A DNA stretch of 64,000 nt from Clostridiales bacterium (GTDB lineage: Bacteria; Bacillota; Clostridia; Christensenellales; Aristaeellaceae). The stretch's first letter is position 1. Each line of letters starts with the position of its first letter. Shown here piece by piece: positions 22,205 to 36,970 of this stretch. Where the stretch lies: positions 10,678 to 74,677 of the forward strand of contig SFHU01000001.1 in the NCBI GenBank assembly GCA_004555535.1, given 5' to 3'. The notes under the pieces were generated by a model. The model did not search any database. It saw only the letters and a program-made list of their open reading frames with translations, and was not told where the DNA came from. Made by a program: the position numbers and the translations under genes.

Positions 22205-22455
22205 GTTTTTTTGCGGCGCTCCTGCCGCCTTCCTCACAGCCGGAGGGGTCGGCGCGCGCGGATCGGTCTTCTGGCTTGGGTTTGCGTCCTCCCGCCTTCC
22301 CGGCCCGTCCGCCCGCTCGCAGGGCGGATTTCGCCAGTGACTGCCTGTTCGGCCTGGGAGGCCGCGCGTTTCCCTTACAGCAGCGGCTACTGCCGGAGAC
22401 TTTCACTCCGTTCCCGGGGCTTGCGCCCATCCGCGCGCCTTTCGGCGCTCACAAA
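22205..22455 (-). promoter_or_regulatory. cobalamin (B12) riboswitch
   Basis: The minus strand reads ..GGGAACGGAGTGAAAGTCTCCGG..GCCGCTGCTGTAAGG..GCAGTCACTGGCGAAA..GGGAAGGCGGGAGG..AAGCCAGAAGACCGATC (B12 box). It is preceded by an extended -10 (TGCTATAAT, 22460-22468) and followed by the BtuF-like gene. Confidence 0.8.
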
Positions 22456-22470
22456 TCTGATTATAGCATG

Positions 22471-34641: not shown

Positions 34642-35697
34642 TCAATCCCCCGCTTGCCTGTCCGCCTCATAGGAAGCAGCAAACGCGCTGACGAGCTGGC
34701 GGATGCGCTCGCTGCCCTCCTCCATATTCTCAACCGAGGTCACGCGGTTTTCCCCCGCCGCCATCGCGCGCATGACCGCGTCGCTGATGTCGCCCGAATG
34801 ATGGGAGTAGTCAAAGTAGTTGTCAAGGTCCGTGATCCACTCCCCGCGGGAGGAAAAGTCGAAGATCTTCACATTCGGATACTCAAGCAGCAGCTCGCAG
34901 ACCCGCGCGCGCGAGCGGAACTGCTGCTCCGAGAGGCCGCCGCAGGTCATCAGATACCAGTAGGCGACGGAATACGGCGGCATGTAGATGACAAACTCCG
35001 TCTCCGGATGCGCGGCGATATACGGCTCCAGGTGGCGCGTGATGTTCTCCGTCGAGCGCTCCAGCCGGGTGTCGGCGGGCAGCATTTCGCTGTGGGCGAT
35101 GACGTCGGGCAGCGCGTCATAGACGCTCTGCGCGCCGAAGGTCACGTCCGTCCACTGGTACATGTCATCGCGCTTCGTGTCAAGCGGCTTGCCCAGGTTT
35201 TGAAGCATCTTCGGGATGCGCACCAGCAGCACGTCGAGGCTGAGCAGATAGTTCACGTCGTCGGGCAGGCTGTCGTTCCACAGATAGGGATAGATCTCCT
35301 CCATGTCCTCCGGCGGGCCCATGAGGCTGTACGCGTCCACGGCGAGGATCGCGAGCTTCAGCTCATGCGTCTCAAGCACATGCGCAAGCTGCCAGCCCAT
35401 CTGCGCCGTATGCGAGCCGCGCATGGGCAGCTTGACGCTCGAGACGCCGAAGGCCTCGTCGATCACCGAGGGATGGCTCATCTCGACCATCGACGTGCCG
35501 AGGATCACGGCGTCGTAATCGTAGTTTTTCGCGATGCCGGGGTTGTTGTAGCTCTCCTGGTCGTACAGCGGCAGGATGGCGGATTCGCGGTAATGCTCAA
35601 AGGGATCGACGAGATAGACCGCCAGCGCGCAGAGCGCCAGCAGCACAAGGAGAAGGGCGAGGACGGCGACTGTCCAGCGTTTGGCTTTTAAAAGCAT
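34642..35697 (-). CDS. membrane-anchored hypothetical protein (single N-terminal TM)
   Basis: 351 aa, RBS GAAAGGAG, TM WTVAVLALLLVLLALCALAVYL, large extracytoplasmic domain. No family recognised with confidence. Confidence 0.6.
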   Translation of the reverse strand: MLLKAKRWTVAVLALLLVLLALCALAVYLVDPFEHYRESAILPLYDQESYNNPGIAKNYDYDAVILGTSMVEMSHPSVIDEAFGVSSVKLPMRGSHTAQMGWQLAHVLETHELKLAILAVDAYSLMGPPEDMEEIYPYLWNDSLPDDVNYLLSLDVLLVRIPKMLQNLGKPLDTKRDDMYQWTDVTFGAQSVYDALPDVIAHSEMLPADTRLERSTENITRHLEPYIAAHPETEFVIYMPPYSVAYWYLMTCGGLSEQQFRSRARVCELLLEYPNVKIFDFSSRGEWITDLDNYFDYSHHSGDISDAVMRAMAAGENRVTSVENMEEGSERIRQLVSAFAASYEADRQAGD

Positions 35698-35726
35698 GGG
35701 GCGCTCCTTTCCGTGCGGATGCCATG

Positions 35727-35756
35727 ATTATAGCATGACGCGCGCGCGGCGCGCAA
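35727..35756 (-). promoter_or_regulatory. extended -10 promoter (TGCTATAAT) for the 351-aa membrane-anchored protein gene
   Basis: The minus strand has TTGCGC-18-TGCTATAAT about 30 nt upstream of ATG 35697. Confidence 0.4.
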
Positions 35757-35796
35757 GGGCGCGCGCGGCGGGCTTGCGCGCCGCCGTTTTGGCGAT

Positions 35797-35828
35797 TGAA
35801 AACGGCCGGCGCTTGACACGCCGGCCGT
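35797..35828 (-). terminator. rho-independent terminator (distal terminator of the peptide transcript)
   Basis: The minus strand reads ACGGCCGGCGtgtcaagCGCCGGCCGT followed by TTTC. Confidence 0.55.
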
Positions 35829-35841
35829 CCCGTAGTACAAT
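35813..35841 (+). promoter_or_regulatory. sigma-A-type promoter TTGACA-17-TACAAT (drives the antisense RNA)
   Basis: Exact -35 consensus, 17-nt spacer, 5/6 match at -10. No protein gene follows on this strand for about 400 nt. Confidence 0.55.
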
Positions 35842-35847
35842 ACAGTC

Positions 35848-35950
35848 AGGAGATGGTCGTCTCGCACGCCAGTCCCCACTTCGGGAATGACGAAGAAAAC
35901 AAGCCATGCCGCCGTTGTAGCCCTAACTACACGGCGGCTTGCTTGTTATT
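35848..35950 (+). ncRNA. candidate antisense RNA (type I antitoxin) convergent to the 29-aa peptide gene
   Basis: Starts about 7 nt after a consensus promoter (35813..35841). It overlaps the 3' UTR and stop codon of the peptide mRNA and ends at the shared hairpin 35900..35946. It may read through to the terminator at 36137..36161. Confidence 0.35.
35893..35946. terminator. long hairpin shared by the convergent peptide mRNA and antisense RNA
   Basis: CAAGCCATGCCGCCGTTGTAG-ccctaa-CTACACGGCGGCTTGCTTG. T-rich on the minus side (TTGTTTTCTT) and TTATTT on the plus side. Confidence 0.55.
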
Positions 35951-36035
35951 TGCTACCCAGCATGTATACTGAGATCAGCAAAGAAGCGACGGAAGCGATA
36001 AAGCCCAAAAGGCTCAGCAAATCCCCGTTGCTCAT
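35946..36035 (-). CDS. 29-aa hydrophobic peptide, candidate type I toxin (holin-like small toxin class)
   Basis: Not in ORF track (too short). The minus strand reads GAGGAGGTGAGCTT-ATG and encodes MSNGDLLSLLGFIASVASLLISVYMLGSK. It has its own promoter, an SD-sequestering hairpin, terminators and a convergent promoter (see findings). Confidence 0.55.
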   Translation of the reverse strand: MSNGDLLSLLGFIASVASLLISVYMLGSK

Positions 36036-36043
36036 AAGCTCAC

Positions 36044-36070
36044 CTCCTCTTCTGTATGACAGAAGCGGAG
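36044..36070 (-). promoter_or_regulatory. 5' UTR hairpin sequestering the peptide Shine-Dalgarno
   Basis: CTCCGCTTCTGT-cat-ACAGAAGAGGAG gives 11 of 12 pairs. The 3' arm contains the AGGAG of the RBS. Confidence 0.5.
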
Positions 36071-36109
36071 AAACCACCGTGCAAGGCTCCTGACCTGCAC
36101 CACAAAGCC

Positions 36110-36138
36110 ATCATATCACAGGCAGCATCCGTTTTCAA
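36110..36138 (-). promoter_or_regulatory. promoter TTGAAA-17-TATGAT with TG extension (drives the 29-aa peptide mRNA)
   Basis: The minus strand reads TTGAAAacggatgctgcctgtgaTATGAT, about 70 nt upstream of the peptide ATG. Confidence 0.5.
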
Positions 36139-36161
36139 GCCCGAAGGGGCTTTCCTTTTTT
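36137..36161 (+). terminator. short hairpin plus T-run
   Basis: AAGCCCgaagGGGCTT followed by TCCTTTTTT. It would stop any plus-strand read-through before the deoD promoter. Confidence 0.45.
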
Positions 36162-36164
36162 CTG

Positions 36165-36193
36165 TTGGCAATTTCTGCACGAAAGGGTATAAT
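36165..36193 (+). promoter_or_regulatory. promoter TTGGCA-17-TATAAT for deoD
   Basis: Located 64 nt upstream of the deoD ATG. Confidence 0.5.
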
Positions 36194-36256: not shown

Positions 36257-36970
36257 ATGGCCAATCCCAATATCCCGACTCCCCATATCACCGCGAAGGA
36301 GGGCGACTTCGCCCGCACCGTGCTGATGCCCGGCGACCCGCTGCGCTCCAAGTTCATCGCGGAAACGTACCTTGAAAACCCCGTGCTGGTCAACAACACG
36401 CGCGGCGTGCAGGGCTATACCGGCGCCTACAAGGGCAAGCGCGTCTCCGTGATGGCCTCCGGCATGGGCATGCCGTCCATCGGCATCTACTCCTATGAGC
36501 TGTTCAACTTCTACGGCGTGGAGAACATCATCCGCGTCGGCACGGCGGGCGGCATCGGCGACAACGTGCACGTGCGCGACATCGTCATCGGCATGAGCGC
36601 GTACACGAATTCGAACTTCGGCAGGCAGTACGGCTTTGACGGCAACGTCGCGCCCTGCTGCTCCTTCAGGCTCCTCGAGGCGGCGGTCAAGGCCGCGCGC
36701 GGCATGGGCATCGAGCCGAACGTCGGCGCGCTGTATTCCTCCGACATCTTCTACGACGAGGCCGGCGGCGCGGGCAAGCTCAAGAAGCTGGGCGTGCTGG
36801 CAACGGAGATGGAAACCGCCGCGCTCTACCTCAACGCCGCGCGCGCGGGCAAGAACGCGCTGGCCATCTGCACGATCTCCGACCACATCTTCACCGGCGA
36901 ATCCCTGCCGGCGCAGGAGCGGCAGGTCAGCTTCACGCAGATGATGGAAATCGCGCTGGAAATTGCGTAA
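36257..36970 (+). CDS. deoD: purine nucleoside phosphorylase DeoD type
   Basis: Trimmed to MANPNIPTPHITAKEGDFARTVLMPGDPLR. SVMASGMGMPSIGIYSYEL, VGTAGG, EMETAALY. Confidence 0.9.
   Translation: MANPNIPTPHITAKEGDFARTVLMPGDPLRSKFIAETYLENPVLVNNTRGVQGYTGAYKGKRVSVMASGMGMPSIGIYSYELFNFYGVENIIRVGTAGGIGDNVHVRDIVIGMSAYTNSNFGRQYGFDGNVAPCCSFRLLEAAVKAARGMGIEPNVGALYSSDIFYDEAGGAGKLKKLGVLATEMETAALYLNAARAGKNALAICTISDHIFTGESLPAQERQVSFTQMMEIALEIA

Follow-up and report, generated by a model that had tools for sequence, protein, structure and literature searches.

A conserved segment of about 340 nt in the DNA of an uncultured Clostridiales lineage is probably an autonomous type I toxin-antitoxin cassette of the bsrG/SR4 design, with a toxin family that appears to be previously undescribed. 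The window, i.e. the whole stretch that was analysed, comprises 64,000 nt of Clostridiales bacterium (Aristaeellaceae; GCA_004555535.1, SFHU01000001.1, positions 10,678-74,677, forward strand). The first-pass annotation had proposed a type I toxin-antitoxin architecture of the txpA/RatA and bsrG/SR4 kind at this site. Our analysis supports this proposal, as all features expected of such a locus at the level of sequence were found. The kind of system is a known one, and the comparisons presented below support a peptide family that is new and not previously catalogued. The features of the cassette are listed here with their positions in the window, their strand and the evidence by which they were placed (SD, Shine-Dalgarno sequence; T1 and T2, terminator hairpins).

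35797..36103, minus strand: predicted toxin mRNA, from the inferred start to the T2 U-tract
36110..36138, minus strand: toxin-mRNA promoter, TTGAAA (36138..36133), 17-nt spacer and TG-extended -10 TGTGATATGAT (36120..36110); promoter scan
36079..36103, minus strand: 5' arm of a long-distance helix (P1-like), GUGGUGCA, GGUCAGGAG and CUUGCAC; minimum-energy fold and covariation
36043..36071, minus strand: SD-sequestering hairpin, anti-SD UCUCCGCUUCUGU (36071..36059) with ACAGAAGAGGAGG (36055..36043); fold and covariation
35946..36035, minus strand: toxin ORF of 29 codons plus stop, MSNGDLLSLLGFIASVASLLISVYMLGSK; translation, about 25 variants and selection
35908..35951, plus strand: T1 hairpin (35908..35938) and its plus-strand U-tract (35939..35951); tail conservation
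35869..35888, strand unassigned: small hairpin in the overlap region; read from alignments
35832..35867, minus strand: 3' arm of the long-distance helix, GUGCGAG (35867..35861), CUCCUGACU (35852..35844) and UGUACUAC (35839..35832); fold and covariation
35848..35951, plus strand: predicted antisense RNA of about 100 nt; placed by its promoter and T1
35813..35841, plus strand: antisense promoter, TTGACA-17-TACAAT; scan and conservation
35797..35831, minus strand: T2, intrinsic terminator of the mRNA, GGGACGGCCGGCG-UGUCAAG-CGCCGGCCG followed by UUUUC; U-tract and covariation

Comparison of homologues showed that the cassette extends from the toxin-mRNA promoter to the far terminator T2. Its borders are sharp, and conservation ends at the promoters and at T2. 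The G+C content is 0.50-0.55 across the cassette region versus 0.60-0.70 in the flanks, in agreement with the lower GC content noted earlier. In total, four promoter-like sites were found by promoter scan in the 1.2 kb around the locus, where 0.6 were expected.

The 29-codon ORF had been placed correctly on the minus strand; it translates to the peptide listed above and is preceded by the ribosome-binding site GAGGAGGTG, 7 nt 5' of the ATG. A homologue search, which had been suggested as a check, recovered about 25 peptide variants from metagenomes and found no second copy within the 64-kb window. Among these variants the numbers of variable columns at codon positions 1, 2 and 3 were 12, 6 and 24, respectively, and the pN/pS of the ORF was 0.135. 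Because of the many variants, this pN/pS and the excess of third-position variation, we conclude that the ORF is a real gene under purifying selection. A 43-aa ORF extended to an upstream GTG was also considered and rejected. The in-frame extension is not conserved among homologues, and a stop codon located 4 codons upstream of the toxin ATG rules it out in six of them (L001-L006).

The peptide is hydrophobic at residues 6-26 and has a single predicted membrane helix within its 29 aa. Its C-terminus is basic and reads GSK, GRK, GRKK or GRNK across variants, and a stripe of Ser and Gly residues (G4, S8, G11, S15, S18, S22) runs along one face of the helix. The locus hence carries what is expected of the type I class, a selected ORF for a small (<60 aa), hydrophobic peptide that would span the membrane once and ends in charged residues. 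Searches of Pfam and NCBIfam yielded no family matching the peptide. Comparison with the models for holin-like and Fst-type toxins, another check that had been suggested, placed it outside both. None of the five peptide variants searched matched Hol_Tox (PF16935; TxpA/BsrG) at E<=10, for which TxpA and BsrG sequences scored 31.3 and 34.5 bits (cut-off 23.3). Likewise, the peptide did not match the Fst/PepA1 models (Pfam PF13955, NCBIfam NF033608), which did recognise Fst and PepA1 sequences used as positive controls. As judged by these models, the peptide belongs by sequence to neither Hol_Tox (TxpA/BsrG) nor Fst.

We used a peptide-degenerate pattern to scan the genomes of 185,579 species representatives. 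This gave two true matches, and four chance matches within one 332-aa Bacteroidota protein; each of two reference MAGs contained a single cassette copy. The pattern scan of metagenomes gave one true match and six chance matches. No cassette was found in the pattern scan of viral contigs, and no copy was detected in phages (tblastn) or plasmids (blastn). The cassette occurs in at least ten unrelated genomic contexts, most of them intergenic regions among chromosomal housekeeping genes. In one case the cassette immediately follows a Phage_holin_6_1 gene (41 bits; cut-off 24.9), at a phage lysis module.

In the window, the cassette is located 120 nt upstream of deoD (36257..36970). The earlier description of the locus as upstream of deoD is accurate as to position, but does not hold as a functional link. 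Since deoD has its own promoter (TTGGCA-17-TATAAT, 36165..36193) and the cassette recurs in so many unrelated contexts, the gene is, on this comparison, an incidental neighbour. We also considered a regulatory leader of deoD, and MITE-like mobile DNA with inverted repeats that mimic RNA helices. The short distance to deoD would suit the former, and the many locations and internal inverted repeats the latter. However, the promoter of deoD lies downstream of the plus-strand terminator, and homologues of the cassette are found beside other genes, among them uvrA, tuf, rpmH and genes for a GT2 glycosyltransferase and a GGDEF-domain protein. Moreover, the repeats are internal rather than terminal and rich in G-U pairs, which would be mismatches in DNA, and the ORF is under purifying selection. 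Both readings are already contradicted by these comparative data, and we consider them hardly credible.

The minus-strand promoter TTGAAA-17-TATGAT claimed for the toxin gene was found again by our scan, together with a TG extension. Its -35 TTG and the extended -10 TGTGATATGAT are kept in all complete homologues, with L030/L031 as the sole deviants. Transcription is expected to start at G36103, because this nucleotide lies 7 nt past the -10, which would give a toxin mRNA of about 307 nt. The full-length mRNA is predicted to fold with paired ends (-150.7 kcal/mol). This fold contains a helix of 24 bp, missed in the first-pass annotation, in which nt 1-25 of the mRNA pair with the 3' UTR. Its 5' arm starts at the first transcribed nucleotide (taking the inferred start), and the helix ends 1-2 bases before T2, which directly adjoins it. 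Pairing of 36079..36103 with 35867..35832 occurs in the minimum-energy fold of every homologue. Within the 3' arm, GUGCGAG and CUCCUGACU are in or partly in the antisense target, and UGUACUAC overlaps the antisense -10. G-U pairs are frequent in the long helix, which assigns it to the mRNA strand.

Covariation was analysed in 19 distinct cassette copies, with slid pairings and 500 shuffles as controls. Overall, 94.3% of the cells were paired versus 39-55% in the slid controls, and compensatory changes were found in 21 pairs versus 3-9 in the slid controls. None of the 500 shuffles reached the observed value on any of five measures. The three sub-helices of the long helix were 97%, 92% and 98% paired and contained 7 compensatory pairs altogether, 6 of which fell among the 9 pairs of the middle sub-helix. 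The SD hairpin was 93% paired, with compensatory changes in 5 of 12 pairs, and is kept in the divergent copy L034 even though the SD reads GGCGGG there. Hence, covariation supports both the SD hairpin and the 24-bp helix between the 5' and 3' ends.

Sequestration of the SD had been proposed as pairing of CUCCGCUUCUGU with ACAGAAGAGGAG. This pairing is indeed part of the minimum-energy fold (z -4.6) and covaries as described. The SD was 13-31% unpaired in every modelled state. According to these models, the mRNA would be translationally inactive through its own structure, as is expected of a type I toxin mRNA. In silico, the SD hairpin remained closed with or without the long helix, antisense binding or 3' truncation, and the modelled antisense-bound and 3'-truncated states reproduced neither a lengthening of the SD helix as in bsrG nor its opening. 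Closure of the hairpin in all modelled states was counted against the toxin-antitoxin reading.

The truncated fold also contained a local 5' stem-loop, GUGCA...UGCAC, which we rejected as a conserved structure. Two homologues disrupt it by changes that strengthen the long helix. The stem-loop may form in the nascent RNA.

Two minus-strand terminators had been claimed downstream of the ORF. The second, T2 (35831..35799 plus UUUU), is retained: its U-tract lies 3' of the stem in all homologues, 94% of its cells are paired, and 8 of 14 pairs have compensatory changes. The first (35938..35908), i.e. T1, does not stand as a conserved terminator of the mRNA. Its U-rich tail is conserved in all homologues on the plus strand only and not on the mRNA strand, from which we infer that T1 is mainly the terminator of an antisense RNA. 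The T1 stem hardly varies, with 8 of its 13 pairs constant in all copies, and its loop is hypervariable. The U-tract of T1 is complementary to the codon for Lys29 and the stop codon.

The plus-strand promoter TTGACA-17-TACAAT reported earlier was recovered by the scan as well. Its -35 lies within the T2 loop, and its -10 shares nucleotides with the 3' arm of the long helix. It is one of only two sites of the form TTGACA-N16-18-TAYAAT in the 64 kb (expected 0.00), and the other TGTGATATAAT site in the window (30289) is an ordinary gene promoter. The -10 is conserved as ATTGTA or ATTATA when read on the mRNA strand, and both the antisense promoter and the plus-strand terminator are conserved in all complete copies. 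Together they predict a cis-encoded gene for an RNA antisense to the toxin mRNA, as expected of the type I class. The predicted RNA has full complementarity to the toxin 3' UTR and the last one or two codons, and folds with -43.4 kcal/mol (z -4.6). It most likely ends at about 35950 and does not cover the ORF, because the plus-strand terminator at 36137..36152 lies in the non-conserved flank. The antisense reach suggested in the first-pass annotation would thus hold for the 3' UTR and the stop codon, but not for the whole ORF.

The small hairpin in the region of overlap has a UCCC/GGGA stem in the window, and CUCCG/CGGAG, UCCGC/GCGGA or UGCG/CGAA stems elsewhere. The stems differ in sequence yet stay self-complementary; this is a reading of alignments that indels misalign in this region. 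Rfam covariance models gave no match at the gathering score in the window and 8 homologous loci, and at E<=10 gave just unrelated chance matches. The antisense region did not match the known Rfam antitoxin families (RatA, SR-type, Sok, Sib and others). Antisense pairing with the 5' UTR in the style of Fst/SprA1 did not exceed the level of shuffled sequences (z -0.5 to -2.8) and was rejected.

It is conceivable that the plus-strand promoter is unused and that the 3' UTR acts only in cis, through the closing helix and the terminator, so that the locus is a self-locked gene without RNA antitoxin. Part of the conservation of the -10 could indeed come from RNA pairing alone, given its overlap with the 3' arm of this helix. 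Terminator loops, however, are normally not conserved, and the T2 loop UGUCAA, which is the complement of the -35 TTGACA, is invariant in 19 of 19 copies, whereas the T2 stem covaries freely. The spacing of -35 and -10 stays at 17-18 nt, also in L034 and in a sister cassette. Furthermore, the plus-only conservation of the T1 U-tract can be understood only if a plus-strand RNA is terminated at this point. We therefore regard an unused promoter as very improbable, and an antisense gene as the better reading.

Among the closest known systems is bsrG/SR4 of the Bacillus subtilis prophage SPbeta (PMC3834814, PMC6562991). In the published structure of bsrG mRNA, a helix joins nt 1-35 to nt 232-262, with the terminator one nucleotide further on; the SD lies within a stem, and binding of SR4 releases nt 1-33 (PMC3834814). 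The cassette shares an mRNA of about 300 nt for a small single-helix membrane peptide, a 5' end of about 25-35 nt that forms a long helix with the 3' UTR, the terminator lying close behind this helix, and an SD buried in a stem. It also shares a convergent antisense RNA, predicted here, that can pair with the 3' portion of the mRNA and so with the 3' arm of the helix, and at least one copy adjoins prophage genes. The models thus show the bsrG/SR4-type arrangement, a helix between 5' end and 3' UTR that abuts the terminator and has its 3' arm inside the predicted antisense target. In contrast to bsrG/SR4, the predicted antisense RNA is about 100 nt instead of 180 nt, its promoter lies inside the mRNA rather than beyond the mRNA end, the SD stem has 12 bp rather than 4 bp, and this stem is not predicted to change on antisense binding. 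Moreover, peptide similarity is undetectable (hhalign of the peptide family alignment against BsrG, probability 0.3%), and the host is a high-G+C uncultured Clostridiales lineage.

In hok/Sok and aapA1/IsoA1, Gram-negative type I systems, the full-length mRNA is likewise closed, its outermost 5' nucleotides being paired with the 3' end, and the SD is occluded. Their antisense RNA binds in the 5' region, and does so only once the 3' end has been processed, whereas the antisense RNA of the cassette would bind the 3' arm; sequence similarity is absent. An antisense RNA directed against the 5' leader of a 3'-processed mRNA, as in hok/Sok, was not found; the antisense gene lies in the 3' UTR. The cassette further resembles txpA/RatA and bsrE/SR5 of B. 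subtilis in having convergent genes with RNAs that overlap at their 3' ends by about 100 nt. In these systems, RNase III is expected to bring about the decay of the toxin mRNA (PMC6562991), and T1TAdb lists the families TxpA/RatA and BsrE-G-H (PMC8594479). Their peptides are of the Hol_Tox type, outside which the cassette peptide falls, and their overlap extends further into the ORF (PMC8594479), whereas that of the cassette includes only the last 1-2 codons. Clostridioides difficile also has type I systems, CD2517.1/RCd8 and others, with cis-encoded antisense RNAs, many of them in prophages (PMC6563280). By description, they share with the cassette the class Clostridia, small membrane peptides with a charged C-terminus, and cis-encoded antisense.

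Comparison alone recovered a complete candidate system in uncultured Clostridiales, including promoters, terminators, SD lock and closing helix. The architecture of bsrG mRNA, known by experiment, would be extended far beyond Bacillus, and covariation can support such an architecture. Its RNA-scaffold signature could reveal more modules where peptide searches fail. The compact, fully defined cassette of 340 nt would be easy to test and might serve as a tool for regulation or counter-selection.

By analogy with bsrG/SR4 and txpA/RatA, we propose the following mode of action. A sigma-A promoter would drive the mRNA for the membrane peptide, with the SD locked by the 12-bp hairpin and the first 25 nt closed onto the 3' UTR. 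The embedded promoter in the opposite direction would yield the antisense RNA, which would pair with the 3' UTR and displace the mRNA 5' end from the long helix; given its complementarity to the 3' arm, binding must free that end. RNase III would then cut the duplex, so that the toxin mRNA is degraded before translation. Upon loss of the short-lived antisense RNA, the stable closed mRNA would persist, part of it would be translated after an unlocking step, and the peptide would enter the membrane and damage it.

A natural deletion variant, L030/L031, is one event seen in two samples. It shares its flank with L032 and has a 100% identical ORF, and all sequence 3' of T1 is missing. Its promoter has a -35 changed from TTG to TCG and a -10 changed from TATGAT to TAAGAT, at positions that are invariant in all other copies. 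These toxin-promoter mutations in a variant without the antisense half are the only indirect hint of toxicity and its neutralisation.

The peptide might instead be a non-toxic small membrane protein, e.g. a regulator or a subunit of a membrane complex, tuned by cis-antisense RNA and a structured mRNA, with no poison-antidote pair involved. The location of most copies in chromosomal housekeeping regions, the single copy per reference genome and the lack of a matching toxin family agree with this and, like the negative phage and plasmid searches, weigh against the toxin-antitoxin reading. However, a functional partner should fix the neighbourhood, whereas the cassette moves alone among its contexts. 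The SD lock, end closure and antisense RNA together would be heavy repression for an ordinary small protein, and the antisense-less copy carries mutations at two otherwise invariant toxin-promoter positions. Moreover, one copy adjoins a phage lysis module, and another has beside it a second cassette built on the same scaffold. We consider a non-toxic protein unlikely and retain the toxin-antitoxin reading.

This sister cassette is located in L001, 1 kb from the main copy, and combines the same scaffold with a different peptide. Type I loci are typically clustered. The two peptides look unrelated (MSNGDLL... in the main and MSDYEMIMIIL... in the sister cassette). It is possible, though we hold it only tentatively, that the RNA scaffold rather than the toxin is the conserved heritable unit and that toxins are swapped within it. 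The cassettes would then belong to an unrecognised bsrG-like superfamily of high-G+C Clostridia, in which the antitoxin mainly competes with the mRNA 5' end for one segment of the 3' UTR, as a three-way RNA switch. Both cassettes have the same extended -10, a closing helix between the 5' and 3' ends and an antisense -10 in one arm of this helix. The antisense -35 is at the position of the terminator in both, inside the terminator loop in the main family, and in both the stop codon lies inside the antisense terminator tail.

A consensus scan recovered the toxin promoter and the near-consensus convergent promoter described in the first-pass annotation, as well as a promoter in front of deoD:

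36138..36110, minus strand: toxin-mRNA promoter (TTGAAA-17-TATGAT, TG extension)
35813..35841, plus strand: antisense promoter (TTGACA-17-TACAAT)
36165..36193: deoD promoter (TTGGCA-17-TATAAT), in front of deoD (36257..36970)

The scan found four promoter-like sites where 0.6 ± 0.8 were expected, and TTGACA-N16-18-TAYAAT occurred only twice in 64 kb (0.00 expected). The claimed lower G+C content was also borne out (0.50-0.55, against 0.60-0.70 in the surroundings).

The same cassette, a unit of ~340 nt comprising the toxin-mRNA promoter, a Shine-Dalgarno (SD) hairpin, the 29-codon ORF, hairpin T1 after the stop codon, the antisense promoter and the far hairpin T2, recurs amid unrelated neighbours in the DNA around its homologues:

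L001-L006: GT2 glycosyltransferase gene on one side, ABC ATPase gene on the other
L007-L012, L018: flanked by uvrA and an aldo-keto reductase gene
L028: immediately 3' of a Phage_holin_6_1 gene (41 bits, cut-off 24.9)
L030-L032: flanked by rpmH and queT
L034: DUF554 gene downstream
L035: preceded by a YAcAr gene
L036-L041: preceded by tuf
L042: precedes an 8xMP gene
L043: flanked by a GGDEF-domain gene and opp

Conservation runs from the -35 of the mRNA promoter to the U-tract of T2, with unrelated flanks. The implied association with deoD was not upheld, because the cassette lies beside unrelated genes elsewhere and deoD has its own promoter; the conserved unit is the 340-nt cassette and not a deoD feature, and deoD is irrelevant. 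Searches of phage records, viral contigs and plasmids returned no copies.

Several features were observed in the flanks. Between the cassette and the deoD promoter, where the flank is not conserved, an intrinsic terminator (AAGCCCGAAGGGGCTT + TCCTTTTTT; 36137-36161, plus strand) would insulate deoD from plus-strand read-through across the cassette. On the other side, a very G+C-rich run with GCGCGC-type palindromes (35700-35795) separates T2 from the start of a 351-aa membrane-protein gene (34642..35697, minus strand; no Pfam family). Its only Rfam matches, PreQ1-III (18.8 bits) and twister-sister (18.3 bits), were sub-threshold and probably due to chance. Elsewhere in the window, a cobalamin riboswitch was found at 22244-22461 (minus strand; 50.2 bits, gathering score 31.5). 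A T-box leader (97.4 bits, gathering score 93) lies at L034:721-937 (minus strand), ~100 nt upstream of a divergent cassette copy. In L036, the tuf gene upstream of the cassette comes after rpsG-fusA, and in L037 the genes before it encode a SpoU-type methylase, a YacP-like protein and a sigma factor; either two separate tuf loci exist or the DNA beside the cassette has been rearranged.

The putative toxin ORF (36035..35946, minus strand) reads MSNGDLLSLLGFIASVASLLISVYMLGSK and is preceded by GAGGAGGTG, in agreement with the strong ribosome-binding site proposed earlier. With the 43-aa extended reading as query, 5.8 billion protein clusters yielded 12 called peptides of 29-45 aa, and a profile search gave 22 peptides. 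When 1.84 billion representatives were scanned exhaustively with HMMER, just four clusters at 50% identity emerged, the divergent MKNSDLLSLLGFIASMVSLVVSFYMLGKMM among them. Across 185,579 species-representative genomes, the peptide pattern occurred in only two 'Clostridiales bacterium' MAGs, W0P37.023 with the window's own locus and SUG673 with the uvrA context. In 11 distinct coding sequences, pN/pS was 0.135 and 12, 6 and 24 variable columns fell at codon positions 1, 2 and 3, respectively. Sequence conservation marks the ORF as a genuine and conserved, though rare, gene. An upstream GTG extension of the ORF was not conserved.

The small or polar residues G4, S8/A8, G11, S15, S18 and S22 are invariant or nearly so and, by simple arithmetic on the sequence, span an 80-degree arc of the helical wheel; the C-terminus is basic, though variable. 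The peptide matched no Pfam or NCBIfam family. The suggested comparison with holin-like and Fst-type toxins gave no match of the peptide and four variants to the Pfam Hol_Tox and Fst models; TxpA and BsrG sequences matched Hol_Tox, and those of Fst and PepA1 matched the Fst models. The hhalign probability against BsrG was 0.3%, and a text search across 8 million papers found no occurrence of the literal peptide sequence.

The SD-sequestering 5' UTR hairpin claimed earlier was present in the minimum-energy fold (z -4.6) and had five compensatory pairs; L034 retains it with GGCGGG as SD and CCCGC as partner. The predicted antisense RNA also folded with z -4.6, and Rfam gave no family match. In folds from the inferred start G36103 to T2, the first 16-32 nt of every homologue paired with a 3' UTR segment lying immediately 5' of T2, a 5'-3' helix that was absent from the earlier description. 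On a final alignment of 19 distinct copies, covariation was tested for the SD hairpin, T1, T2 and this long-distance helix, the last divided into three sub-helices, which makes six helices in all. In the tested structure, 94.3% of cells were paired (39-55% in slid controls) and 21 pairs had compensatory changes (3-9 in slid controls); none of 500 shuffles matched the observed value on any of five measures. A previous analysis of the full fold agreed with this. The middle sub-helix (36095..36087 / 35852..35844) had compensatory changes in 6 of 9 pairs, its arms being GGUCAGGAG/CUCCUGACU in the window, AAUCGAGAG/CUCUCGAUU in L026 and GGUCGUGAG/CUCACGACC in L042. Since G-U pairs were frequent, the helices belong to the mRNA strand.

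T2 had eight compensatory pairs, yet its loop UGUCAA, which corresponds to the antisense -35 TTGACA, was invariant. The outermost 3' arm of the long helix shares bases with the antisense -10 (TACAAT; TATAAT in L034). In T1, which immediately follows the stop codon, the stem hardly varies and the loop is hypervariable; its U-rich tail is conserved on the plus strand only, as complement of the Lys and stop codons. Hence, of the two minus-strand terminators proposed earlier, T2 stands as the mRNA terminator, whereas T1 is the antisense terminator. Besides the 3' UTR, the antisense RNA would accordingly cover just the final one or two codons, not the whole ORF as had been considered. In the window alone, a weak minus-strand U-rich run after the extended T1 stem makes a short mRNA isoform possible. 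In the models, the SD stem responded neither to the long helix nor to antisense binding, and complementarity between antisense RNA and 5' UTR was no better than in shuffles.

In the experimentally probed bsrG mRNA of Bacillus subtilis (296 nt), helix P1 pairs nt 1-35 with nt 232-262, the terminator follows one nucleotide after P1, the SD lies within a stem, and SR4 binds the 3' part, leaving nt 1-33 single-stranded (PMC3834814). Those type I antitoxins of B. subtilis that have been studied to date bind toxin-mRNA 3' ends over 100-140 bp and promote decay, and RNase III cleaves the duplexes in cases examined, except bsrH (PMC6562991). According to T1TAdb, 3'-overlap is typical of Gram-positive families (PMC8594479). 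The cassette follows the bsrG/SR4 plan with three differences: its antisense promoter is embedded inside the mRNA, its antisense RNA is shorter (~100 nt, predicted), and its SD stem is much longer (12 bp; 4 bp in bsrG). The covariation-supported 5'-3' helix ties it specifically to this design. Sequence comparison, covariation and this helix thus support the txpA/RatA- or bsrG/SR4-like type I architecture proposed earlier, and a cassette that would work like bsrG/SR4. By sequence, it belongs to no toxin or antitoxin family catalogued so far, and we rate it a new family. Transcription of both RNAs is predicted; by analogy with bsrG/SR4 and txpA/RatA, the peptide is a putative toxin that the antisense RNA would neutralise, and RNase III and an SD-unlocking step would be involved.

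A toxin-only variant occurs in L030 and L031. On the rpmH side their flank is the same as that of L032, and their ORF is 100% identical to the one in L032. All sequence 3' of the first T1 bases is replaced in L030 and L031, which removes T2 together with the antisense promoter and the long helix's 3' arm. Their toxin promoter carries changes in the -35 (TTG>TCG) and -10 (TATGAT>TAAGAT), at positions invariant in every other copy, as would be expected of a peptide that does harm once the antisense half is missing. The deletion represents a single event in two samples. In this remnant (L030:900-1130 and L031), the replacing sequence brings a TGCTATAAT promoter-like site of its own, and it places before queT a structured leader that could be a preQ1-type riboswitch; no Rfam family matched the leader at its gathering score.

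A sister cassette was observed at L001:4905-5210 (minus strand), ~1 kb from the main one, inside an indel by which L001 and L002 differ. The two cassettes share the scaffold, but the sister encodes another peptide, MSDYEMIMIILTFLTLLVAVDKKNRG, of 26 aa, which has five homologues (P0023-P0027) and no Pfam match. The promoter of the sister cassette is TGTGATATGAT, its 5' end GUGUAGGCAGGUAG pairs with CUACCUGCCUACA beside an ATTGTA-17-TGTCAA antisense promoter, and it has an SD hairpin and a stop codon within the other strand's terminator tail (fold z -6.6). The same indel (L001:4252-4912) holds an 86-aa ORF and a 70-aa ORF with a weak match, below cut-off, to ParD-like ribbon-helix-helix antitoxins (E 0.03). 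Small accessory modules appear to have a hot spot at the indel site.
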